A stretch of DNA of 32,000 bases, taken from positions 1-32,000 of the forward strand of contig DASVZK010000049.1 of the NCBI GenBank assembly GCA_036391685.1. The letters run 5' to 3'. Origin of the DNA: Ktedonobacterales bacterium (GTDB lineage: Bacteria > Chloroflexota > Ktedonobacteria > Ktedonobacterales > JADMIN01). Below are positions 4,352 to 24,956 of this stretch, one piece after another. The notes beneath the pieces were generated by a model. That model was not told where the DNA came from, searched no databases, and saw only the letters and a program-made list of their open reading frames with translations. Every line of letters starts with the position of its first letter. Within the stretch, counting starts at the first letter, position 1. The position numbers and the translations under genes are program-made.

Positions 4352-5128
4352 ATGAGCGCGCAGGAGACATCCGCGCCGCACGCGTCGCCTATCGCGGAAG
4401 GCGCGGAAGCGCGGGAGACGCTGTACGTCTGGGATTTGCTGGTGCGAATCGCGCACTGGCTGAATGTGCTGAGCATCGTGGTCCTCAGCGTGACCGGCTA
4501 CTACATCGCCAGCCCATTCATCACCACGCAGGGCGCGGCGACAGACAACTTCCTGATGGGCGCGATCAGGTTCACGCATTTCCTGTTCGCGTTCATCTTC
4601 ACGGTGACGGTGCTCTTCCGCATCTACTGGGCACTCGCGGGGAACCGCTGGGCGGGCTGGCGCCAGTTCATCCCCACCTCCCGGAAGCGGTTGCGCGCGC
4701 TGGGCCGCATGGGGCGCTACTACGCCTTCCTGCGCCCGCGCCCTCCTGCCGTCGTCGGCCACAATCCACTCGCGGGCGCGGCCTACACCGCGATCTACGT
4801 GGTTTTCGCGATACAGATCGCCACGGGTTTCTCCCTGTATGTCCTGCCGGACCATACTGGCGTCCTGCTTTGGCTGTTCGGCTGGATTACGGCGATCTTC
4901 GGCGTCCAGCCTGTGCGGTTGGTCCACGACCTGGCGATGTGGGTGATCATCGCCTTCACAATTCACCACGTCTACAGCGCGGTCCTGATCGATATCGAAG
5001 AGCGCAGTGGACTGGTCTCCAGCATCGTGACCGGCTACAAGTCGCTCACGCCCGAGCATATCGCGGAGGCGCGCGAGAACGACGCCGGCGCAGGACGCGC
5101 GACCATACATGAACAGGAGCGAGGGTAA
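4352..5128 (+). CDS. hupC: Ni/Fe-hydrogenase b-type cytochrome subunit
   Basis: Four predicted TM helices with the HyaC/HupC-type pattern VRIAHWLNVLSIVVLSVTGYYI and conserved His residues. Lies directly after the large subunit, with GGAGGG SD. Confidence 0.9.
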   Translation: MSAQETSAPHASPIAEGAEARETLYVWDLLVRIAHWLNVLSIVVLSVTGYYIASPFITTQGAATDNFLMGAIRFTHFLFAFIFTVTVLFRIYWALAGNRWAGWRQFIPTSRKRLRALGRMGRYYAFLRPRPPAVVGHNPLAGAAYTAIYVVFAIQIATGFSLYVLPDHTGVLLWLFGWITAIFGVQPVRLVHDLAMWVIIAFTIHHVYSAVLIDIEERSGLVSSIVTGYKSLTPEHIAEARENDAGAGRATIHEQERG

Positions 5129-5658
5129 TGGAGACAGAAACAGGCGGCGACCCGTTTGCGCCAGAGGTGGTCGTGATTGGCCTGGGCAACCGGCTGCGGC
5201 GCGATGAGGGCCTGGGCGTCTGCGCGCTGGAGCGGCTGCTGGCGCGCTACAATATTGCGCCCGGTGTGCAGCTGGTGGACGGTGGCACGCTTGGGCTGGA
5301 CCTGCTCGCTTATGTCGAGGGCGCGCGCAAGCTGCTCGTGCTCGACGCGACCCTGACGGACGACGCGCCCGGCGCGCTCATGCGGCTGGTTGGTGAGGAG
5401 GTCCCGGCATACTTCGGCATGGGTGGCTCTTCACACGAGATCGGCCTGCCTGATCTGCTGGCGGTTACCCGCCTGCGCGGGACCGCGCCCGAAGAGGTTG
5501 TGGCGCTTGGTCTGCAGCCGCACACCATCGAGCTGGGATGGGAGCTCTCGCCCGTGGTGGCCAGCCGGATCGATGAGCTGGCGGACGCGGCGGCGAGGCA
5601 GCTGACCGCCTGGGGCTATCCCGCCACGCTGAAAGCCGAGGTGAGCGCGCATGCATGA
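5128..5658 (+). CDS. hupD: Hydrogenase maturation endopeptidase (HyaD/HupD family)
   Basis: VVVIGLGNRLRRDEGLGV, DGGTLGLDLL and SSHEIGLPDLL motifs. Start overlaps the cytochrome b stop (TAATG). Confidence 0.9.
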   Translation: METETGGDPFAPEVVVIGLGNRLRRDEGLGVCALERLLARYNIAPGVQLVDGGTLGLDLLAYVEGARKLLVLDATLTDDAPGALMRLVGEEVPAYFGMGGSSHEIGLPDLLAVTRLRGTAPEEVVALGLQPHTIELGWELSPVVASRIDELADAAARQLTAWGYPATLKAEVSAHA

Positions 5659-6055
5659 GGCGGCGGCGATTCAGGGGGCGGTCAGTGTGGCGCTGGAGCG
5701 TGTCGCGGCGCTGGGCTCGCCCAGAGTGCGGGCGGTGGAGCTAGCGTTAGGCGTTTCCGGGCATATCACTGACGCCATCGCCCGGCAGCAATTCGCCATC
5801 TGCGCGCTCGGCACCCCGCTGGAGACGGCGGCGCTGCGCATCGTCTGGCTGCCGGCTACCTATCAGTGCTTTACGTGTCTGCGCCAGTTCTCCAGTGTTG
5901 AGCCGGCCGAGGGTGTCGCCTGCCCTGAGTGCGGTGGTGTGGCGCTGGAGATCGCGCACGATGACGCCTGCTATATCCAGGCGATCGACGTGGATGGCGC
6001 CGGAGGTGTGGACGGCGAGCCGCTTCTGGCGGACGCGCCGCGGGCCGGATCATAA
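5651..6055 (+). CDS. hypA: Hydrogenase nickel-insertion protein HypA
   Basis: N-terminal MHE nickel motif and a zinc site CFTC...CPECG. Overlaps the hupD stop. Confidence 0.85.
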   Translation: MHEAAAIQGAVSVALERVAALGSPRVRAVELALGVSGHITDAIARQQFAICALGTPLETAALRIVWLPATYQCFTCLRQFSSVEPAEGVACPECGGVALEIAHDDACYIQAIDVDGAGGVDGEPLLADAPRAGS

Positions 6056-8255: not shown

Positions 8256-8377
8256 GTGCGACCAGCCGCATGCCGTCCGCCTGCTTGCGCGCGTCGCGCC
8301 CCACGCGTTCCACTTTTCTCTAGAGGCGTGGGACGCGTGGGGCGTTGCGCGTCCGGTCAGTGAAGGAGGCAGGTCGC

Positions 8378-8920
8378 ATGGGCAGGCTCAGTGGCAAGAC
8401 GGTTGGAGTCTTCGTGGCGGAGGGCTTCGAGGACCTGGAGTTTTGGGTCCCGCTGATGCGGATACGTGAGGAGGGCGCCCGCGCGCTGGTGATCGGCCTC
8501 TCGTCGGAGACTGTGACGGCCAAGCACTGCCTGACGGCGACGCCTGATGTCACCGCGGACCAGGTGGACGCCGCGACGCTGGATGGGCTGGTGGTTCCGG
8601 GAGGATGGGCGCCAGATAAGCTGCGGCGCAGCGAGGATGTGCTGCGTATCACGCGCGCGGTCTATGAAGCGGGCAAGCCGGTCGGCGTGATCTGCCACGG
8701 TGGGTGGGTCGCCGCGTCGGCGGGCATCGTGCGCGGCATGCGTGTCACCGGTTCGCGCGGCATCCGTGACGACATGGTGAACGCCGGCTCCACCTGGGTT
8801 GACGAGCCCGCTTTCCGCTCCGGCAATGTTGTCTGGGGCCGCGTCGTTGAGGATATCCCCGACTTCCTGCGCGAACTGATCGCCGCGCTGGTAGACCATG
8901 CGCAGGCGGCGCAACGGTAG
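8378..8920 (+). CDS. DJ-1/PfpI family protein (class I glutamine amidotransferase-like)
   Basis: GKTVGVFVAEGFEDLEF, LVVPGGWAP and the nucleophile-elbow motif VICHGGW. GAAGGAGG SD at 8362-8369 supports the ATG at 8378. Confidence 0.85.
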   Translation: MGRLSGKTVGVFVAEGFEDLEFWVPLMRIREEGARALVIGLSSETVTAKHCLTATPDVTADQVDAATLDGLVVPGGWAPDKLRRSEDVLRITRAVYEAGKPVGVICHGGWVAASAGIVRGMRVTGSRGIRDDMVNAGSTWVDEPAFRSGNVVWGRVVEDIPDFLRELIAALVDHAQAAQR

Positions 8921-8933
8921 GGGCTAACGAAAG

Positions 8934-9016
8934 ACGCCGGGCGACAAATGGTCTGTGAGTTTGCATCCCAGGTCCAAGCCCGGTGCGAATGAATCCTACA
9001 ATCAGCCACCCGGCGT
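8934..9016 (-). ncRNA. Y-RNA-like unit Y5 (83 nt)
   Basis: The 12-bp closing helix ACGCCGGGTGGC / GTCGCCCGGCGT has all positions paired (2 G.U). Shares the 5' GGC-UG and 3' UUUGUC signature of the other units. Followed by a U-rich stretch CTTTCGTT. Confidence 0.6.
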
Positions 9017-9033
9017 TCCGTGTGAGGTGAAAA

Positions 9034-9179
9034 GCGCCGCGAGACAAGAGGCGACGAAGCTGATTGGGCCGAAGCCCAGGCGCTCTGCCGATTGAGCTAC
9101 GCGCGCCGAAGCGCGCGGCGGGACTCGAACCCGCGACTTATCTATCCACGAAGGAGCCCTATCTACAGCCTCACGGCAC
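9034..9179 (-). ncRNA. Y-RNA-like unit Y4 (146 nt), YrlA-type with a complete permuted tRNA-like module
   Basis: 12-bp closing helix GTGCCGTGAGGC / GTCTCGCGGCGC (3 G.U). Internally, in order: AAGTC, T-arm GCGGG-TTCGAGT-CCCGC, a 7-bp acceptor-like stem CGCGCGC/GCGCGCG capped by TTCG, then TA and D-arm GCTC-AATCGGCA-GAGC-G. Followed by TTTT. Confidence 0.75.
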
Positions 9180-9215
9180 GCTAAACAAACCGGAATGCCG
9201 GACGCCCGGCCGGAA
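9180..9215 (-). terminator. Terminator-like element between units Y3 and Y4
   Basis: Minus strand reads TT-CCGG-CCGG-GCGT-CCGG-CATT-CCGG-TTTGTTT. This is an interrupted 8-bp CCGG stem followed directly by a U-rich tract. Confidence 0.35.
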
Positions 9216-9290
9216 GCGCCAGGTGACAAGGAATTGGTGAGGGCTTGTCGATTAGAAGTCGAAGTATCCCCACCAGCAGCCACCCAGCGC
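9216..9290 (-). ncRNA. Y-RNA-like unit Y3 (75 nt, short YrlB-like form)
   Basis: 12-bp closing helix GCGCTGGGTGGC / GTCACCTGGCGC (3 G.U). Second helix GGTG-GGG / CCC-T-CACC. 5' GGC-UG and 3' CUUGUC signature. Confidence 0.65.
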
Positions 9291-9364
9291 GCTGGTATGC
9301 TGAGTATCGCCCATTGGAATGCCTGGCGACAAGCGACGACCCACAAGGACATCGAAAGGCGTGA

Positions 9365-9485
9365 GCGTCTCGCGACAAAACAGATGACGACGTTAGATCT
9401 GGCCCGCGCGGGCCAGACCGGCGGACGAGGCCGGATTGTTCGGTAAGGAAAAGCGAAGGAACGCCGCCCAGCAGCCGCAAGACGC
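9365..9485 (-). ncRNA. Y-RNA-like unit Y2 (121 nt)
   Basis: 12-bp closing helix GCGTCTTGCGGC / GTCGCGAGACGC (2 G.U). Second helix GGCGGCG / CGTCGTC. Apical perfect 20-nt palindrome TCTGGCCCGCGCGGGCCAGA at 9398-9417. Confidence 0.65.
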
Positions 9486-9504
9486 GATGGTGGAGTGCGG
9501 GCAA

Positions 9505-9611
9505 GCGCTCCGCGACAAGAAGCGATGACGTCTCTCACTGACGCTTGCGCGCCAGGTCTGGAGTCGAACCAGAAGAACCACGAAGGAACGCCACCTACAG
9601 CCGCGAAGCGC
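9505..9611 (-). ncRNA. Y-RNA-like unit Y1 (107 nt), with a partial tRNA-like module
   Basis: Starts 14 nt after the rsr stop. 12-bp closing helix GCGCTTCGCGGC / GTCGCGGAGCGC (2 G.U). Second helix GGTGGCG / CGTCATC. T-arm mimic TCTGG-TTCGACT-CCAGA at 9557-9573, followed by a GCAA-capped 6-bp hairpin TGGCGC/GCGTCA. Confidence 0.7.
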
Positions 9612-9625
9612 TCGGCCTTCGCACA

Positions 9626-12448
9626 CTAGGGCAACAGGGAGACCTGCCGGATCGCCTCGACCTGCGAGGCGCCGCCGCGCGCCATCAGGGCGATGAAGCC
9701 CAGCGCGCCGCTGTCCCAGCCATAGAGGTAGTAGCAGCCCGGCTCATCCGGCGGGACCACCGCGTGCCTGTACGGCATGAGTTGCAGGAAGAAGACCAGA
9801 AGCTCCGGGTTGACCCGCTTCTTGTACTCGCGGATCAGGTCCAGCGCGCCGCGGTTCTTCGTCAGGTGGTCTACCCACGACTCACTGTCGGTAATGAAGA
9901 TCGCCACGTCGTAGCGCCGCGCGCTCTTCCCCTTGGAGCCGAAGGCGTACTCCAGCGGCGCCGAGAGGCTGGTGCCGCCGCCGTAGCCACTGACCGCCTG
10001 CGCGATCTTCGACAGCGACTGCCCGTTGTGGACATCGCGCGGGCGCGCCTCGGTGTCAAAGCTGACGATCTCGCCGCGCGCCGCCTTCAGGAACGCCGCC
10101 GCCGCGAAGACCGCCGCGATCTCCGCCATCGTCATATCTGACTTCGGCGAGGGCCGCGAAGACATCGAGCCGCTGATGTCGTTGGCGATCAGGACGCGGT
10201 TGCCCAGCTCTGGCATGTTGGCGACGCTCAACTCGAGCGCCGTCTCCAGCGCCTCCCTGATCTCCACCACCCCTGCGGTGTTCACGTCCTGCTTCTCCAG
10301 CGCCTTGAGCGCCGAGATGAAGCGGAACGGGAACTGCTTCGACTCCGCCACGCGCTTGGGGTCCGCCAGCGTGTTGGTGATGTGCCGCAATGCCGGCCTG
10401 TCCGCCGTGACACCGTACTTGATCATATTATTCAGGTTGCGAAGGCAGTTTCCGGTGACTATCCCGTTGGCCACCAAGAGGTTTGATGGTTCCACAGTGA
10501 CGCAATACACGGGCTTCTCTCCGCTATCCTCAATTGCGACAACTTGGTCGAACGCCACTGAAGGATCGTGACCATACATGGCGCTCGTCGTTGGACGGAC
10601 ATGCGTGAGGCGACTGGCTACTGAAGCCAACTTATCGGCCTTGTAGCCGATGCGCAGAGGCAAGAGCTGAGCCAGGCGAACAACAGCAGTCGCGCGAGAC
10701 ACCTCCACGATATGAATGGGATGACGACTGATGATGGTTTCGCCTTGCTTGGCCTTAGCCATGTAGCTACGCACACGGTTCATGACACCAAATCTTAGAA
10801 GGGCATCGGAGACCTGCTGCGCTAATTTGGCCGAAACAGTCGCATATTCCACACTGGTGTGGAATATTCCCTTGGGATTCGTGCGCTCATGCACGTGTCC
10901 ATCGGTATCGATCAGGCCTGAAAGGCAGCCGATCCAAAACGCTGCACTGAAAGGCTTGTTCGGAAGCGACGTCACTTCGCATCGCAAACCCCATACGTCG
11001 AACTCTCGCAATATCTCAGTAAGGGGGTTACGCTTCCATAGCTTGAAGGGGAATCGCAAGCGCACGATCTTATCAGTATTCGTGGCCGAGATTTCTGTGA
11101 CGCGGCAGGCATGGGCCTCTGCGTACTGTCGCATGAACGCAACTGCGCCATCATTGGGATCGCCATGGAATTCTGGCGTCACAGAAGTCATCCCGCCGTC
11201 GCCTAGCATCGCGCCTACAAAGTAGCCATCATCCTGGCTGCCCAACGAGCCAAAGAAGGCAGCTGTCAAAGGAGATGGAATGTGATCTCCCGCAGCTAAT
11301 TCTGCTGTAGTGCGCCACTCCCATGACTTTCTACCATTACCGCGTCGTTGTGCGATCCAGCGATGATCCAGCGTAGCGTCAAGTACGCGGCCAGAACGGA
11401 AACGAACTGTCTTTACCGGTTGCACGCCGTTGGCTATCCACTCAGATGGTGTTGTTGATACGAGATGGCCTACCTCGTGATCTCGCGGAGGTTGCGACTG
11501 AGGCCCATAGTGAACCGGGCGCGTATCCCATGCTTTGGTGTAGGAGAGCGCCTGCAACTTGTTCTCAACCACATCCTCGATAGGCGCCGTTGTACCGTCT
11601 GCGAGCCAAATAGGTGTGCCTTCAGCCAAACATGCCATGTACGGCATCTGGTACAGCATCGCCGTCCAGACCGCCGCCGATCCGCTGACCTGCGCGGTCA
11701 CGACCTCCCACGGCAGGCGGCTCTCAGCGATCAGGCTAAGCAGCCGCTTCTCGCCATCAGGCGCCGGCTCGCCGCGGTAGGCCCTGGCCTCGGTCTTGAA
11801 CGCCTCGTAGCCGGCGATCTGGGCCAGCCCGTCAGCAACCTCGCCCTTGACCAGGTAGCGCGCGATGTCGTTCGCGGCGCCCGCCAGCTTCGGGCGGGTG
11901 AGGCGGTAGATGTCGCGCAGGCTCATCTCCTGGGACTCGGCGCCATATTTGATCGCGTGGTACTCGCTCATCGCGCCCAGCCAGCGGCCAGCGGCGCGCT
12001 GCACGAGCTTGCCCATGCCGCGCAGCTTCTTCGCGCGGATGAGGCTGATGACGTCCTGCAGGTCGCCCGGGGTGCGCACGACGCGCGGGAAGATCAGGCG
12101 GAACATCTCCTTGGCGTCCTCGTTGGGCGCGGCGGAGAGCGCCACCAGCGCGGTCAGCGGCGCGAGGCGCATCAGGCCCTCGTTGCGGGCGTAGACGATC
12201 GCCTGCGCCAGGTAGCGCGGATCCTTCGCCGCGAAAGCGGCGAAGAGCGCCAGCGCCTCCTCAGCCAGTTCCTGCGCGGATGCGTAAACGGTTGGCTCCA
12301 GCATGCCGGTCCTGAGGACACGCGCCAGCGCCTCCTCGTCGCTGCGGGAGAAGGTGGGCGCGCCCTCGTAGTTCGTCTCGGTGGCCACGTCATAGGCCCC
12401 CGGCGCGAACAGGCGAGTGATCTTGGTTGCCTTGGTCTTTGGCTTCAT
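9626..12448 (-). CDS. rsr: Ro60 orthologue Rsr (TROVE + vWA/MIDAS) carrying an in-frame intein; 940-aa precursor, about 545-aa spliced product
   Basis: Exteins align by eye to Ro60. VWTAMLYQMPYMA|CLRNLNNM matches human [21 protein letters not shown]. MIDAS motif NDISGSMS, GGGTSLSAP, FITDSESW, and a C-terminal GWDSGALGFI matching GFDTGALDVI. Residues 273-667 form an intein. Confidence 0.9.
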   Translation of the reverse strand: MKPKTKATKITRLFAPGAYDVATETNYEGAPTFSRSDEEALARVLRTGMLEPTVYASAQELAEEALALFAAFAAKDPRYLAQAIVYARNEGLMRLAPLTALVALSAAPNEDAKEMFRLIFPRVVRTPGDLQDVISLIRAKKLRGMGKLVQRAAGRWLGAMSEYHAIKYGAESQEMSLRDIYRLTRPKLAGAANDIARYLVKGEVADGLAQIAGYEAFKTEARAYRGEPAPDGEKRLLSLIAESRLPWEVVTAQVSGSAAVWTAMLYQMPYMACLAEGTPIWLADGTTAPIEDVVENKLQALSYTKAWDTRPVHYGPQSQPPRDHEVGHLVSTTPSEWIANGVQPVKTVRFRSGRVLDATLDHRWIAQRRGNGRKSWEWRTTAELAAGDHIPSPLTAAFFGSLGSQDDGYFVGAMLGDGGMTSVTPEFHGDPNDGAVAFMRQYAEAHACRVTEISATNTDKIVRLRFPFKLWKRNPLTEILREFDVWGLRCEVTSLPNKPFSAAFWIGCLSGLIDTDGHVHERTNPKGIFHTSVEYATVSAKLAQQVSDALLRFGVMNRVRSYMAKAKQGETIISRHPIHIVEVSRATAVVRLAQLLPLRIGYKADKLASVASRLTHVRPTTSAMYGHDPSVAFDQVVAIEDSGEKPVYCVTVEPSNLLVANGIVTGNCLRNLNNMIKYGVTADRPALRHITNTLADPKRVAESKQFPFRFISALKALEKQDVNTAGVVEIREALETALELSVANMPELGNRVLIANDISGSMSSRPSPKSDMTMAEIAAVFAAAAFLKAARGEIVSFDTEARPRDVHNGQSLSKIAQAVSGYGGGTSLSAPLEYAFGSKGKSARRYDVAIFITDSESWVDHLTKNRGALDLIREYKKRVNPELLVFFLQLMPYRHAVVPPDEPGCYYLYGWDSGALGFIALMARGGASQVEAIRQVSLLP
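10448..11632 (-). mobile_element. Class-1 intein with LAGLIDADG homing endonuclease (395 aa, residues 273-667 of Rsr)
   Basis: Block A CLAEGTPIWLADG (Cys1, TGT at 11630-11632). Block B TLDH. LAGLIDADG motifs YFVGAMLGDGGM and CLSGLIDTDGHV. Block F VYCVTVEPSNLLVANG. Block G IVTGN followed by +1 Cys (AAC 10448-10450, TGC 10445-10447). GC hand-counted on 60-nt lines: 48-55% inside versus 65-72% in the exteins. Confidence 0.88.
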
Positions 12449-22142: not shown

Positions 22143-22544
22143 GTGACGCCAGTGGATGAGTTCTACCCGCAGGCGGGACATGCGCCGCTGACGCCTGCGG
22201 TCTTCCATATCCTGCTGGCGCTGGCGGGCGGTGAGCGTCACGGCTACGCCATCATGCAGGAAGTGCGGCGGCAAAGCGGCGGGCAGATGCGCCTGGGGCC
22301 TGGGACGCTCTACGGCTCGCTGCGCCGCCTGCTGGAGGAAGGACTGATCGAGGAGATGGATTCGCGTCCTGATCCGGCGCTGGATGACGAGCGCCGCCGC
22401 TACTACCGGCTGACACCGGAGGGCCGGCGCGCCGCGGAGACGGAGGCTGCGCGGCTGGACACGCTGGCGCGGGCGGCGCGCGCGCGCGGACTGTTGCCCC
22501 AGCCTCCAGGTGGCGAGCCCGCTGGAGTAGGAGGCGGTGCGTGA
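22143..22544 (+). CDS. PadR-family transcriptional regulator
   Basis: Winged-helix pattern FHILLALAGGERHGYAIMQEV...GTLYGSLRRLLEEGLIEE...RRRYYRLTPEGRR. The start may be the GTG at 22152, which has better spacing from the GAGAGGAG SD. Confidence 0.9.
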   Translation: MTPVDEFYPQAGHAPLTPAVFHILLALAGGERHGYAIMQEVRRQSGGQMRLGPGTLYGSLRRLLEEGLIEEMDSRPDPALDDERRRYYRLTPEGRRAAETEAARLDTLARAARARGLLPQPPGGEPAGVGGGA

Positions 22545-23875
22545 GCAGGGATGACTGGCCGCCAGGACGGCGCCAGAGTAGCCACTGGTCGCTCCCGATC
22601 TATGCGGCGCTGCTCCGGCTCTACCCGCCCACACTGCGGCGCGAGTACGGCGATGACATGCTCCAGGCTTTCCGAGACACGCTGCGCGAGGAGACACGCT
22701 GTCGCGGGCGGCGCGGAGCGCGGCGGGCATGGGCCATCGCGTTGGGTGACCTGGCGGCCAGCATGCCGGGCGAATGGTCACGCGAGCTGCGGCGTGGCTT
22801 GCCTGTCAGCCGCGCGCGGCGCTACGGCCTGTTACGGCGCACACGCCTGCCGGGAGGCGGCTGGCGGATCGAGGGCTGGCTGGGGAGCGCGCCCGCGCGA
22901 AGGCCGTTGCTGCTGATACCAGGGCGCCCCGCGCGGATGGTCGCGAATAGGGCGAGGAGGATGACGATGCAGGACCGGTTCGACAGGTTCACCGAGCAGG
23001 CGCGGCATGTCTTGCAGTTGGCGCAAGAAGAGGCGCAGAGCTTCAACCACAATTACATCGGAACCGAGCATCTGTTGCTCGGGCTGCTCCGTGAGGAGGA
23101 AGGGCTGGGCGCGCGGGCGCTGGTCAGCCTGGGCGTTGAGCTAGAGAAGGCGCGACATGCCGTCGAGCTCATCATCGGGCGTGGCGACCGCGTCATCCTG
23201 GGCGACATTGGCCTGACGCCGCGCGCGAAGAAGGTCGTCGAGCTGGCGGTGGATGAGGCCCGGCGCCTCGGCCAGCGCTATGTCGGGACCGAGCACCTGC
23301 TGCTTGGCCTCGTCCGCGAGGGTGAGGGTATCGCCGCGGGCGTGCTGGAGTCGCTGGGCGTCAGTCTGGAGACGGCTCGCGCCGAGGTGCAGAGGATGAT
23401 GGCGATGTCCGGCTCGGCGCCCACCATGCCTGCCACGTCCGCCGCGAGGGATCCGCTGCGCCTGGCGGTTCTCTACCTGGCGCTCGCCTGTCGCGACATA
23501 AACGCGACCGCCATGTTCTACGTCGAGGCGCTGGGCGCGAGCGTGGCGACGCCGAATGACTCCGCATCGCAGGGGCTGGCAGGTGGCGAGCGGCTGCTGC
23601 GCCTGCCCTTCGGCGGGGCGCGTGGCGGCGGGACACTGCTGGCGCTGCGCGCGGCCACCCCAGATGAGGCGGCTGTTACAGGGCCTGCCACGGGAGCTAT
23701 CGAGCTCCGAGTCATCGCCAGCGATATCGCTGGGTTGCATAGCGCGATCAAGGAGCGCGGGGCCGCCGGCCTGACCAATCTCGCCGAGATTCCCGGCGCG
23801 CCGAATATGCGCGCATTCACGCTGACCGACCCCGATGGGCGCGTCCTGCGCTTCCAGGGTATCTATCGCGCATAA
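22541..23875 (+). CDS. Three-part fusion: PadR-operon-associated N-terminal region, ClpC-type N-domain (two Clp_N repeats), VOC/glyoxalase-like C-terminal domain
   Basis: GTGA overlap with the padR stop. N-terminal YAALLRLYPPTLRREYGDDMLQAF. FDRFTEQARHVLQLAQEEAQSFNHNYIGTEHLLLGLLREEEG plus a second repeat closely resemble the ClpC/ClpC1 NTD. The C-terminus (YLALACRDINATAMFYVEALGA...AFTLTDPDGRVLRF) fits the VOC fold pattern. Confidence 0.8.
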   Translation: MSRDDWPPGRRQSSHWSLPIYAALLRLYPPTLRREYGDDMLQAFRDTLREETRCRGRRGARRAWAIALGDLAASMPGEWSRELRRGLPVSRARRYGLLRRTRLPGGGWRIEGWLGSAPARRPLLLIPGRPARMVANRARRMTMQDRFDRFTEQARHVLQLAQEEAQSFNHNYIGTEHLLLGLLREEEGLGARALVSLGVELEKARHAVELIIGRGDRVILGDIGLTPRAKKVVELAVDEARRLGQRYVGTEHLLLGLVREGEGIAAGVLESLGVSLETARAEVQRMMAMSGSAPTMPATSAARDPLRLAVLYLALACRDINATAMFYVEALGASVATPNDSASQGLAGGERLLRLPFGGARGGGTLLALRAATPDEAAVTGPATGAIELRVIASDIAGLHSAIKERGAAGLTNLAEIPGAPNMRAFTLTDPDGRVLRFQGIYRA

Positions 23876-24023
23876 CGCGCGCCGGCGCGAGCCTCGTGAT
23901 ACCCATCGGCCGTTCCCGTCATATACTGCCCAACACATCCAACACGTCATAAGAATGATAAGCGCTCTGGCCGCGCGGCGAGGCGCGGGCGCTGTCATGC
24001 TGTGGGGTGGGAGGCGAGGAACG

Positions 24024-24956
24024 ATGGACGGGCAGCCTGGCAGGTTCGACAAGTTCACCGAGCGCGCGCGCAAGGTCCTGAGTCTGGCGCAGGAAGAGGC
24101 GCTGCGCTTCAATCACAACTACATCGGAACGGAGCATCTGCTGCTCGGCCTGATCCGCGAACAGGATGGCACAGCGGCGAAGGCGCTGAAGAACCTGGGC
24201 GTCGAACTCAACAAAGTGCGCGCCGCGGTCGAGTTCATCATCGGCCGTGGCGACCAGATCGTGCTGGGCGATGTCGGGCTGACCCCGCGCTCACGCAAGG
24301 TCATCGAGCTGGCGGTCGATGAGGCGCGGCGCCTCGGCCACCGCTCCATTGGGACCGAGCACCTATTGCTTGGCATCGTCCGCGAGGGCGTCGCCTCAGG
24401 CGTGCTGGAGTCGCTGGGCGCCAACCTGGAGATGGTGCGCGCCGAGGTTGCGCGCCTGTTGGATATGTCCGTTTCGCCTTCCGATGAATTGCTGAGCTCA
24501 TTATTTCACTCGCCAGACAGGGGAGCATGGTTGAAGGTGGCGGCACAGCCCGAACCGCAACCCTTCGGCGCCCTCACGTTCATCTGCCGCGATGTGGCCG
24601 CCACCGCCGCGTACTACATGGACTATCTGGGCGCGACCGAGCTGGATGATCCTGAGTCTACGCTACGCTACGAAATCGCCGCCGAACGGCTTTTGCGGCT
24701 GCCGTTCCATGCGCCGCTGCTGGCGCTGCGCTCCGCGCCGCAAGGCGCGGACGAAGCGGAGCGGAACGTCATCGGCGCGATCGGGCTGGACTTCTTCACC
24801 AGCGAGGTCGGAGCCATCTGGGTCACGCTTCAGGCGCGCGACGCGCCCGGCGTCTCGCCGCTCACCGCGGTTCCCGGCGCGACGGACCGGCGCATGTTCA
24901 CGCTGACTGATCCCGATGGGCGCAAGCTGCGCATCCACAGCGCAATCAACACGTAG
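24024..24956 (+). CDS. ClpC-type N-domain::VOC/glyoxalase-like fusion protein (paralogue of 22541..23875)
   Basis: ATG at 24024 with GGGAGGCGAGGAA SD. GRFDKFTERARKVLSLAQEEALRFNHNYIGTEHLLLGLIREQDG... is roughly 70% identical by eye to the upstream paralogue across the Clp_N repeats. C-terminus FICRDVAATAAYYMDYLGA...MFTLTDPDGRKLRI. Confidence 0.8.
   Translation: MDGQPGRFDKFTERARKVLSLAQEEALRFNHNYIGTEHLLLGLIREQDGTAAKALKNLGVELNKVRAAVEFIIGRGDQIVLGDVGLTPRSRKVIELAVDEARRLGHRSIGTEHLLLGIVREGVASGVLESLGANLEMVRAEVARLLDMSVSPSDELLSSLFHSPDRGAWLKVAAQPEPQPFGALTFICRDVAATAAYYMDYLGATELDDPESTLRYEIAAERLLRLPFHAPLLALRSAPQGADEAERNVIGAIGLDFFTSEVGAIWVTLQARDAPGVSPLTAVPGATDRRMFTLTDPDGRKLRIHSAINT

Follow-up and report, generated by a model that had tools for sequence, protein, structure and literature searches.

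Five tandem Y RNA-like units behind the Ro60 gene rsr in a Ktedonobacterales bacterium

The window analyzed here, a 32,000-nucleotide stretch of contig DASVZK010000049.1 from a Ktedonobacterales bacterium, contains a Ro60-like rsr gene (TROVE + vWA) on the minus strand (9626..12448; TAG stop codon at 9628-9626), with Pfam matches to TROVE, vWA_Ro60, LAGLIDADG_3 and Intein_splicing. The coding sequence is split by a 395-aa LAGLIDADG intein (11632-10448), and the encoded Rsr is 100% identical to a protein (P0001) annotated as 'TROVE domain-containing protein [Ktedonobacterales bacterium]'. Another intein-bearing Rsr (P0009, 85% identical) has a gene-free gap of 2 kb behind its rsr gene, and a limited literature search for inteins in TROVE/Ro60 proteins found nothing relevant. 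The whole gap between rsr and a convergent DJ-1/PfpI gene is filled by five units, Y1-Y5, which sit 14-692 nt past the rsr stop codon, all on the minus strand and thus on the rsr strand. An earlier note on this sequence had placed the start of Y1 14 nt after the stop codon; we confirmed this distance, which becomes 11 nt if the terminal stem is extended to 15 bp.

The same note had described one architecture recurring five times, and this description held. Each of the ten helix strands it quoted occurs once, at its proposed place on the minus strand, with standard pairs at 12/12 positions of every strand pair; UG follows each 5' strand, YUU precedes each 3' strand, and the penultimate G.U pair, said to be invariant, is found in 5/5 units. 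The scaffold common to Y1-Y5 consists of a perfect 12-bp terminal stem (stem 1), GGC-UG, YUUGUC, an inner helix (helix 2) and a (U/A)NCUUCG box. At the inner end of stem 1, a conserved G.U pair is followed by C-G, then by a U that is bulged or mismatched, and then by a G facing U (5' GGC[U]G, 3' YUUGUC), and the junction reads GGCUGUAG, GGCUGCUG or GGCUGAUU; beyond it lie an asymmetric loop, helix 2 with its own invariant G.U pair, and the box.

The interior of the scaffold differs between units, which we scored with R2, a leave-out covariance model built from relatives' units only. Y1 (9505..9611, 107 nt; 81.2 bits, E 2.4e-17) has stem 1 (9611-9600 / 9516-9505) followed by GGC-UG, helix 2 (9595-9587 / 9532-9524), a UUCCUUCG box (9588-9581), a T arm (UCUGG-UUCGACU-CCAGA, 9573-9557) and a hairpin like an acceptor stem (AS) with a GCAA loop (9555-9538); a D arm is absent from its structure. 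In Y2 (9365..9485, 121 nt; 55.6 bits, E 2.7e-11), stem 1 with GGC-UG, helix 2 (9468-9460 / 9394-9386) and a box that also reads UUCCUUCG are followed by three hairpins, among them a 5-bp stem with a 7-nt loop lacking T-loop sequence (9434-9418) and an 8-bp hairpin (9417-9398). Y3 (9216..9290, 75 nt; 58.8 bits, E 4.6e-12) is a minimal form with stem 1 and GGC-UG, an 8-bp helix 2 (9275-9268 / 9243-9235), a AUACUUCG box and one small hairpin (9262-9248). Y4 (9034..9179, 146 nt; 69.8 bits) is of the YrlA type: stem 1 with GGC-UG and a helix 2 with a single A/C mismatch (9163-9156 / 9060-9053) enclose a T arm (9134-9118), an acceptor-like stem with a UUCG loop (9117-9100), a D arm (9097-9082) and an additional hairpin (9078-9065). 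Y5 (8934..9016, 83 nt; 36.1 bits, E 1.1e-06) is the weakest unit; its stem 1 is perfect and GGC-UG and UUUGUC are present, its helix 2 (9000-8995 / 8959-8954) contains two mismatches, its box reads UUCAUUCG, and its interior holds a sole irregular hairpin (8985-8964). A grouping made in the earlier note needed adjusting: its label of short forms for Y2, Y3 and Y5 does not suit Y2, given that unit's length and three internal hairpins. The inner helix is real in Y1-Y4 and covaries across units but is weaker in Y5.

Folding and chance controls agreed with this picture. All five units fold with the terminal stem and an inner helix closed (5/5 minimum free energy structures; z-scores -2.4 to -4.6). 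When we scanned the whole window on both strands with a strict pattern (GGCTG ... TTGTC with 8 bp or more on its flanks), we found 5 matches, whereas 200 shuffles gave 0.135 on average and never more than 2. A relaxed hairpin scan (GGCTG with 10/12 or more pairs) was rejected as far too noisy in GC-rich DNA, so we relied on the strict pattern and on covariance models instead. With filters off, R2 returned exactly five matches in the 32-kb window (81.2-36.1 bits), and the next best hit scored 13.6 bits.

The claim that helix sequences differ while pairing is preserved was assessed over 27 units, using the 21 pairs of stem 1 and helix 2 (a 16-unit version was also run). Pairing was kept in 93.1% of cells, compared to 72.4% after shuffling, a margin that overstates independence because the units share descent, and compared to 41-52% when partners were slid. 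Compensatory changes occur in both helices, double-sided ones in 15/21 pairs, whereas the G.U pairs are retained (stem 1, 26/27; helix 2, 25/27) and the closing C-G is altered once in 27 units, to U-A. Read on the opposite strand, 76.5% of cells would pair. The slid-partner control speaks against shared descent as the full explanation, as does the variety of pair types, and both helices covary strongly across these units.

We found comparable arrays in relatives. In eleven related rsr loci of Ktedonobacterales type, rsr is directly followed on its own strand by 1-8 units, giving a set of 47 units in 12 loci, and five loci outside model building have 5, 5, 3, 4 and 3 units directly behind rsr. 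All model matches in the window and 89 rsr loci (71/71) are on the same strand as rsr and near it; with R1, a model built from the units of such arrays, 50/50 matches are on the rsr strand, and many distant loci have Y RNA-like elements immediately upstream of rsr. For each of Y1-Y4 there are orthologs at about 80-85% identity, compared with 52-66% between one another: Y1 in loci L001, L002 and L085 (82-84%), Y2 as L085_u4 (80%) and L002_u6 (74%), and Y3 in L085, L002 and L001 (79-85%). Y5 has no clear ortholog (best match elsewhere, 66% identical), and this together with its weak helix 2 means that it may be decaying. Each array of at least three units contains at least one YrlA-type unit, L089 excepted, and all arrays examined also include short units that lack a tRNA-like domain. 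A limited literature search on Y RNAs in Chloroflexi found nothing relevant. Exact-pattern matches in viral contigs (GGCTGCAGN7TACTTCG, n=29) were rejected; R1 confirmed 0/29 and we treated them as chance.

The permuted tRNA-like domain (T arm, acceptor-like stem, D arm; structural reference PDB 6cu1, 10.1101/312249) is complete in Y4 only, so the description of both Y1 and Y4 as tRNA-like is right for Y4 and partly right for Y1, which has the T arm and AS-like hairpin but is missing the D arm; the domain is absent from Y2, Y3 and Y5. In permissive mode, the Y4 interior matches the Rfam YrlA model RF02553 (9137-9082; 39.7 bits, E 4.9e-07; model positions 28-81). The Rfam scan that the earlier note had suggested yielded no match in the whole window at gathering thresholds, although the YrlA threshold (69 bits) is uninformative here, since the YrlA-type RNA of phage Nappy itself scores 36.1 bits. 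At the same thresholds, 20 related loci gave tRNAs, tRNA-Sec and a tmRNA only and no YrlA; Y RNA models other than YrlA had no hit in the window up to E 10, and ARAGORN detected neither a tRNA nor a tmRNA. For 12 YrlA-type units, RNAalifold recovered the T, AS and D arms with compensatory changes in 18/34 pairs, and the AS covaries. R1 detects the mycobacteriophage YrlA-type RNA (L084, Nappy) over its full length (E 0.009).

At the junction, the Rsr-recognition motif of bacterial Y RNAs has been published as GNCGAAN0-1G / CGAA (PMC4201824; PMC12135203). CGAA at the junction was found in 0/47 units from the 12 loci, which carry GGCUG(N)(N)G in its place. The layout of G.U, C-G, extra pyrimidine and G is nevertheless the same in the Nappy Y RNAs (GCCGAAGG / AUGUC), and the proposal that the units have the layout of a Ro-binding module (G.U, C-G, bulged pyrimidine, G.U) is upheld by this likeness as far as sequence can tell. 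A box of the form (U/A)(U/C)(A/C)CUUC(G) is present in all units, and the tetramer equivalent to YUAY reads UUAC in most relatives' YrlA-type units, CUCC in Y4 and UUAC in Nappy; by this comparison, the (U/A)NCUUCG box is the apparent counterpart of YUAY and the V-arm start of YrlA. In overall form, a Y RNA has a long end-paired stem with a Ro60 site followed by a large loop or module, in roughly 80-130 nt; the units, at 75-146 nt, have the 12-bp end-pairing stem, an asymmetric loop, a second helix and a variable module.

From these data we propose, as part of the best explanation of the locus and with a probability of roughly 80%, that Y1-Y5 are five paralogous bacterial Y RNAs encoded on the rsr strand, with Rsr as their presumed protein partner. 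The shared scaffold would be the putative Rsr (Ro60) binding module, a sequence variant of both the metazoan bulged-helix site and the bacterial YrlA GNCGAA site. The variable inner part would serve as an effector or gating module, in keeping with the modular build of Y RNAs from a Ro60-binding stem and an effector module (10.1101/312249): in Y4 this would be a complete permuted tRNA-like domain of the YrlA type, in Y1 a T arm with an acceptor-like hairpin as in YrlB or Yrn1, and in Y2, Y3 and Y5 other hairpins. The Y RNAs would bind the outer surface of the Rsr ring and either gate the ring or tether it to different partners; a precedent is PNPase in the Rsr/Y RNA/PNPase complex (RYPER) of D. 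radiodurans.

The array and rsr are probably on one transcript, as the gap between them is 14 nt long and has no terminator or promoter signal. Scans for consensus promoters and terminators found none in or around the array and nothing useful upstream of rsr, and did not report the following candidate. The 74-nt Y2-Y3 spacer contains, at 9303..9338 on the minus strand, a remnant of a unit 3' half (CGUCGCUUGUCGCC, 9338-9325) whose TTGTCG sits 18 nt upstream of a -10-like GATACT (9308-9303), and this hexamer ends 12 nt before Y3. TTGTCG-N18-GATACT/GATAAT/GATAGT/TAGTAT also precedes Y3-type units in L001, L002, L085 and L086. This element is a possible internal promoter, from which Y3 and the units behind it might receive extra transcription. 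A sixth unit in the same spacer was considered and rejected (fold z +0.2 versus shuffles; no R2 match). The array transcript would then be cut into RNAs of 75-150 nt, by analogy with M. smegmatis, in which YrlA and YrlB come from a single precursor (PMC4201824).

Among the alternatives, the one that survives best, though we consider it unlikely, is that Y4 alone, or Y4 and perhaps Y1, works as a Y RNA and the others are decaying tandem duplicates without a function of their own. The remnant in the Y2-Y3 spacer shows that units do decay, their number varies from 1 to 8 per locus, and Y5 has the lowest score (36.1 bits), a mismatched helix 2 and no ortholog above 66%. Decay does not, however, readily account for Y1, Y2 and Y3, whose stems are kept paired by compensatory changes and whose orthologs elsewhere are 74-85% identical, in comparison to 52-66% identity to their neighbors. 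In addition, every array examined contains short units without the tRNA-like domain, and Rsr binds the non-tRNA-like YrlB in both Salmonella and M. smegmatis (PMC4201824).

We regard it as improbable that the hairpins are rsr 3' UTR elements (3'-exonuclease stabilizers, terminators or insulators) and not separate Rsr-binding RNAs. Such elements could explain why the units fill the entire gap between the convergent genes, why the first begins so close behind the stop codon, and why some GC-rich stems are followed by U-rich runs (UUUUC behind Y4, CUUUCGUU behind Y5). Yet the terminator scan found none in the array, the downstream neighbor gene differs at other loci, and distant lineages have the same module on the upstream side of rsr; protective hairpins also need no conserved unpaired motifs, invariant G.U, T loop, D arm or permuted tRNA domain. 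Very improbable is a chance accumulation of REP- or MITE-like mobile palindromic repeats or tRNA-derived pseudogenes. The units are tandem, similar and palindromic, Y1 and Y4 contain tRNA-like pieces and copy number varies, but no further copies exist in the 32-kb window (both strands, filters off), the flanks of the 89 rsr loci have matches solely on the rsr strand and near rsr, and ARAGORN found no tRNA, the T-AS-D order being the YrlA permutation and not that of a tRNA. That the region encodes a small protein is scarcely credible: the earlier note's statement that no credible ORF lies here must allow for mechanical ORFs that cross this GC-rich region (stop-free stretches up to 207 aa), but one of these, a 178-aa ORF (9538-9002, minus strand), has no Pfam match, substitutions follow base pairing and not codons, and a frame conserved in relatives, which the note had named as evidence against its reading, is ruled out because their regions span 440-1075 nt and hold 3, 5 or 8 units.

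Beyond the identification of Y1-Y5 as Y RNAs, we tentatively suggest, as a reading that we think has less than an even chance of being correct, that the array is an adaptor library for one Rsr. At least four anciently diverged types (a full tRNA mimic, a T arm with a GNRA-capped hairpin, a three-hairpin form and a minimal form) would share a common scaffold, each with its own conserved effector module directing or gating Rsr to a different partner or substrate class, and arrays would grow and shrink by recombination. Their promoters would be built in, with elements in the rsr stop codon (TGTGCTATAAT in relatives) and in the Y RNA 3' strand (TTGTCG as -35). If this proposal is correct, the system of the Ktedonobacterales would stand out among bacterial Ro60/Y RNA systems as the richest and most modular, and would offer a natural experiment on effector module function. 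We know of no established role for the effector modules of bacterial Y RNAs, nor of a known binding partner for the YrlA tRNA mimic, and comparison within this clade (3-8 units per locus, at least four module types) separates what is preserved for Rsr from what is variable. The whole GGC[U]G-type branch is missed by the CGAA motif and by the Rfam YrlA threshold, so Y RNAs are probably under-annotated in Chloroflexota and in metagenomes; our covariance model and the 47 units can seed a broader Y RNA family.

Y RNAs bind and guide Ro60, and studied rsr loci mostly have one or two of them. Bacterial Y RNAs are encoded no more than 4 kb from rsr and on its strand, with at least one tRNA-like member per species, and non-tRNA-like ones such as YrlB are also bound by Rsr (Chen et al. 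2014, PMC4201824). Like YrlA, the units adjoin rsr on the same strand, have ends that pair into a presumed Rsr-binding stem (PMC4201824) and carry a YUAY-type box after the 5' strand, and in the Y4 effector domain the T arm, acceptor-like stem-loop and D arm follow one another as in YrlA, the T and D sequences being almost identical. In contrast to YrlA, the junction is GGC[U]G(N)(N)G / YUUGUC rather than GNCGAAN0-1G, the Rfam match of Y4 is limited to model positions 28-81 and falls under the gathering score, and the YrlA-type unit is one of 3-8. The position downstream of rsr is that seen in Salmonella, unlike mycobacteria and their phages.

The closest parallels to the other units are the second, non-YrlA Y RNAs found beside YrlA and rsr, namely YrlB of S. 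Typhimurium and M. smegmatis, Yrn1/Yrn2 of D. radiodurans and Yrl1/Yrl2 of Thermus phage phiLo (PMC4201824; PMC12135203), some of which have a T arm only (compare Y1) or are simple hairpins (compare Y2, Y3 and Y5). Two Y RNAs have been named at each of those loci (of the four small RNAs near rsr in D. radiodurans, two are called Y RNAs), whereas there are five here and up to eight in one relative, and the Ktedonobacterales arrays differ in that their units share one well-conserved scaffold and fall into four or more conserved types of paralog. Metazoan Y RNAs (hY1, hY3, hY4, hY5) likewise form a terminal stem from their 5' and 3' ends, and each genome has several paralogs that differ in their loop modules. 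The junction layout (G.U, C-G, bulged pyrimidine, G.U) is also seen in hY1 (5' GGUC[C]GA, 3' UUGACU; here 5' GGC[U]G, 3' UUGUC) and in Xenopus Y3, and the metazoan Ro60 site, too, is a helix with a bulged pyrimidine beside C-G and G.U pairs. A structure of Xenopus Y3 with Ro60 is 1yvp (Stein et al. 2005, as cited in 10.1101/312249). Metazoan Y RNAs differ in being separate Pol III genes with no array behind the Ro60 gene, in lacking tRNA-like modules and in having no detectable sequence-family match to the units. The array is a real and unusually large set of Y RNAs, yet it lies within the known class, of which it is a clade-specific, expanded variant.

Between the stop codon of the Ro60-like gene rsr (TAG, 9628-9626, minus strand) and the convergent DJ-1/PfpI gene (8345-8920, plus strand), we found five units of one architecture, all on the minus strand: Y1 (9611-9505, 107 nt), Y2 (9485-9365, 121 nt), Y3 (9290-9216, 75 nt), Y4 (9179-9034, 146 nt) and Y5 (9016-8934, 83 nt). 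The stem strands quoted in the earlier note were each recovered once, where it had placed them, and its claim of complete pairing held, as each of the five terminal stems (stem 1) has 12/12 standard pairs and the penultimate pair is G.U in 5/5. The 5' strand is followed by UG in all units, and the 3' strand is preceded by CUU or UUU. A search of both strands of the 32-kb window for a strict pattern (GGCTG ... TTGTC and no fewer than 8 flanking pairs) gave 5 occurrences in all, compared with a mean of 0.135 in shuffled sequences. RNAfold closed both stem 1 and the inner helix (helix 2) in 5/5 units (z-scores -2.4 to -4.6); the 74-nt spacer between Y2 and Y3 folded no better than shuffles.

Relatives were found through a search with the Rsr C-terminal extein, an Rsr alignment search and look-ups of individual homologs. 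All 11 further loci with readable DNA after rsr (Rsr 48-89% identical) contain such units, directly 3' of rsr and on the rsr strand: three each in L001, L004, L024, L087 and L089, four each in L016 and L088, five each in L085 and L086, eight in L002 and one in L006. The sequence of L003 stops 58 nt past rsr, with the beginning of one unit visible. When 27 units were aligned, standard pairs filled 93.1% of the cells in the two helices, bearing out the proposed compensatory pairing; this value was 72.4% with shuffled columns and 41-52% with partners slid by 1-3 columns. Double-sided changes occur at 15/21 pairs of these helices (114 cells), the G.U of stem 1 is retained in 26/27 units and a G.U of helix 2 in 25/27, and the closing C-G of stem 1 changes once, to U-A (GGUUG / UUCAUC, L016). 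GG.UG and the U..UUC box are invariant, and the C closing stem 1 and the 3' U.GUC are near-invariant. On the opposite strand only 76.5% of cells would pair, because many of the pairs are G.U, and this poorer pairing places the RNA on the rsr strand.

To avoid circularity, we scanned the whole window, with filters off, using a covariance model (R2) built from 22 units of other genomes only. Its matches (in descending order 81.2, 69.8, 58.8, 55.6 and 36.1 bits) fell exactly at the five units, and the next-best match in the window scored 13.6 bits (E 0.22). A second model (R1), built from all 27 units and scanned against the window and 84 loci, gave 50 matches at E < 1, 50/50 of them on the rsr strand; on five loci outside model building it gave 20 strong matches (E ≤ 6.3e-08), all directly 3' of rsr.

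An Rfam scan at curated thresholds, a check proposed in the earlier note, returned no match anywhere in the window. In permissive mode, the sole significant match was to YrlA (RF02553), at 9137-9082 inside Y4 (39.7 bits, E 4.9e-07), spanning model positions 28-81, which comprise the T arm, acceptor-like stem and D arm. YrlA has been reported in the phage group to which Mycobacterium phage Nappy belongs (Chen et al. 2014, PMC4201824). As the YrlA-type RNA upstream of the Nappy Ro gene (L084) scores only 36.1 bits with the Rfam YrlA model, against a gathering score of 69, the 69-bit curated threshold is an unfair test, and Rfam annotation at that threshold misses YrlA outside the seed taxa. The Nappy RNA is aligned over its whole length by R1 (L084 2330-2481, E 0.009). 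Immediately upstream of rsr, this model also detects Y RNA-like elements in numerous distant loci (among them L007, L012, L079, L010, L011, L008, L009 and L052); these elements share the 5' GGCUGCAG ... (G)UUACUUCG arrangement, and T and D arms often come next. An independent RNAalifold prediction from 12 YrlA-type units contained stem 1, helix 2, both the T and D arms and, between these arms, an acceptor-like stem with strong covariation; compensatory changes were seen at 18/34 pairs.

Y4 is a complete YrlA type, in keeping with the earlier description of Y1 and Y4 as tRNA-like; Y1 fits that description less well, since its T arm is canonical (UCUGG-UUCGACU-CCAGA) and its acceptor-like hairpin is capped by GCAA, but it has no D arm. 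Y2 had been wrongly classed as a short form: it is 121 nt long with three hairpins, one of which has T-arm dimensions without T-arm sequence. Y3 is a minimal form, and Y5 is minimal and irregular. A motif check found a T loop and a D arm together in at least one unit of each array with three or more units, L089 excepted. Each of Y1-Y4 has a counterpart elsewhere at 80-85% identity but shares only 52-66% with neighbouring units, so the paralog types predate these genomes and have been maintained separately, which argues for separate roles. These counterparts also speak against the units being decaying duplicates, an explanation that is plausible for Y5 only; Y5 has no counterpart above 66% identity among the units of the other genomes compared, and may be young or decaying.

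If the hairpins were stabiliser or terminator elements of the rsr 3' UTR, the conserved unpaired motifs and the tRNA-like domain would be left unexplained, and the module lies upstream of rsr in other lineages. Both dispersed repeats and tRNA pseudogenes are contradicted: 71/71 model matches are on the rsr strand and none is far from rsr, ARAGORN found no tRNA, and the arms are in permuted order. A protein-coding region is disfavoured, as the 178-aa ORF at 9538-9002 has no Pfam match and no frame is conservable in relatives because unit numbers differ between loci. From these comparisons of sequence and predicted structure, we conclude that the array belongs to an established class, bacterial Y RNAs next to rsr (YrlA with YrlB-like companions), in an expanded, clade-specific form with five units in the window, up to eight in a relative and at least four conserved paralog types. 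The interpretation in the earlier note is thereby supported, with corrections to the length of Y2, to full tRNA-likeness (Y4 only) and for the failure of curated Rfam thresholds.

In all loci, 5-39 nt separate rsr from the first unit. Given this spacing, and as consensus scans found no promoter or terminator, the simplest model is that the array would be transcribed together with rsr and then processed, as described for M. smegmatis YrlA/YrlB (PMC4201824). A hint of an extra promoter comes from a TTGTCG-N18-GATACT element, present in five loci (window 9303-9338, minus strand; L001 ~5919-5948; L002 ~1823-1852; L085; L086) with its end 10-12 nt upstream of Y3-type units; relatives have the -10-like variants GATAAT, GATAGT or TAGTAT. 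The -35-like hexamer of this element is supplied by the unit before it, through that unit's CUUGUC 3' motif; in the window this motif lies in the leftover 3' half of a lost unit (9338-9325), indicating that unit order has been rearranged relative to L001, L002 and L085. The final codons of rsr, together with its stop codon, spell TGTGCTATAAT (or GTGTTGTAATG, TGCTATGAT) in relatives, an extended -10-like box of AT-rich codons in GC-rich genomes (L004 ~1402-1414; L016 ~503-513; L024 ~300-310; L089; L087; L088; L005), 4-16 nt before the first unit in most loci and 35 nt in L088. This box suggests that the array has its own promoter. In L006 the box, TGTGCTAGTAT (~4598-4608), follows the rsr stop codon, and the window version is degenerate (TTGCCCTAGTGT, 9636-9621).

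The rsr gene (12448-9626, minus strand), a Ro60 ortholog with TROVE and Ro60-vWA domains, encodes a protein identical to P0001, an NCBI-named TROVE-domain protein of a Ktedonobacterales MAG. It contains a 395-aa intein with a LAGLIDADG homing-endonuclease domain (10448-11632, minus strand), which begins with Cys1, ends in ...VTGN before a +1 Cys, and is inserted in the conserved TROVE motif MPYMA/(L->C)LRNLNN at the slash. Because Rsr homologs at 85-89% identity occur both with the intein (P0002, P0007, P0009) and without it (P0003-P0006), it looks recently mobile; more distant homologs P0026, P0060 and P0071 also bear it. Our literature search found no paper on an intein in Ro60/TROVE. On the 89,650-bp contig encoding P0009 (JGI sample 3300047160), a 2-kb stretch without a called gene follows this intein-bearing Rsr, which is 85% identical to that of the window, and this space could hold a Y RNA array bigger than any of those read here.

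The wider window is ordinary chromosome, with a [NiFe] hydrogenase operon, an EamA transporter, a DUF6390 protein, DJ-1, rsr and divergent gltB, and no rtcB, rtcA or rtcR among the window ORFs scanned. Chromosomal context is common to the window, L085 (gltB neighbour) and L001 (DJ-1 neighbour). At 22541-24956 (plus strand), an ORF of 444 aa and an adjoining, overlapping one of 373 aa each have paired Clp_N domains and no detectable AAA+ ATPase part, the first with a weak glyoxalase-like match. In L088 (1-2869), rsr and its array adjoin a phage-type integrase and small HTH genes, and throughout L087 they lie among genes without a Pfam family; the module may sometimes be carried on mobile elements. 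Distant rsr homologs (27-40% identity) lie inside dense tRNA gene arrays across L008, L010, L011 and L022, which may be phage or tRNA-island contexts; L008 has ~30 tRNA matches and a tRNA-Sec within 7.5 kb. In L015 a tmRNA (5623-5975) lies 1 kb after rsr, and Y RNA-like matches occur just upstream of rsr in L008, L010, L011 and L015. The Rfam tRNA model is also matched in full (positions 1-71) across unusually long spans (108-132 nt), three of them forming a tandem set immediately upstream of rsr in L013 (2141-2272, 2431-2562, 2734-2841) and one in L012 (827-946); they may be tRNAs with introns or tRNA mimics related to Y RNAs.

In the literature consulted, which took in Chen et al. 2014 without its supplementary tables, neither Chloroflexota Y RNAs nor arrays of this size were described, and we regard the array as a useful system that exposes a gap in annotation rather than as a new principle. 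GNCGAAN0-1G near the 5' end of Y RNAs is a likely Rsr contact that has been likened to vertebrate GGUCCGA (Chen et al. 2014, PMC4201824), and the 'CGAA motif' was taken as a hallmark in a 2025 Thermus phage Ro60 study (PMC12135203). This motif is absent from the units, which read instead GGCUG and then UAG, CUG or AUU, a junction variant that current motif- and Rfam-based searches miss. The UNCUUCG box of the units corresponds to the conserved YUAY that starts the V region of YrlA (PMC4201824). Its CUUCG is the 5' strand of the V hairpin in YrlA-type relatives, and pairs with a nearby CGA(A) in short units.

The two Y RNAs of Nappy read 5' ...CAG-GCCGA(A/G)(G/A)G and 3' ...CCAUGU-CUG...; the shorter Y RNA-like element in this phage, with GCCGAAGG, lies between the YrlA-type RNA and the Ro gene (L084 ~2505-2590). 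Vertebrate hY1 and Xenopus Y3 have the junction layout U-A, C-G, bulged C, G.U. The layout is G.U, C-G, extra C, G.U in Nappy and G.U, C-G, extra U, G.U in the window units. The window units and the Nappy Y RNAs thus have the same junction layout with a different sequence, and we infer that the window motif is probably a sequence variant of the same protein-binding site.
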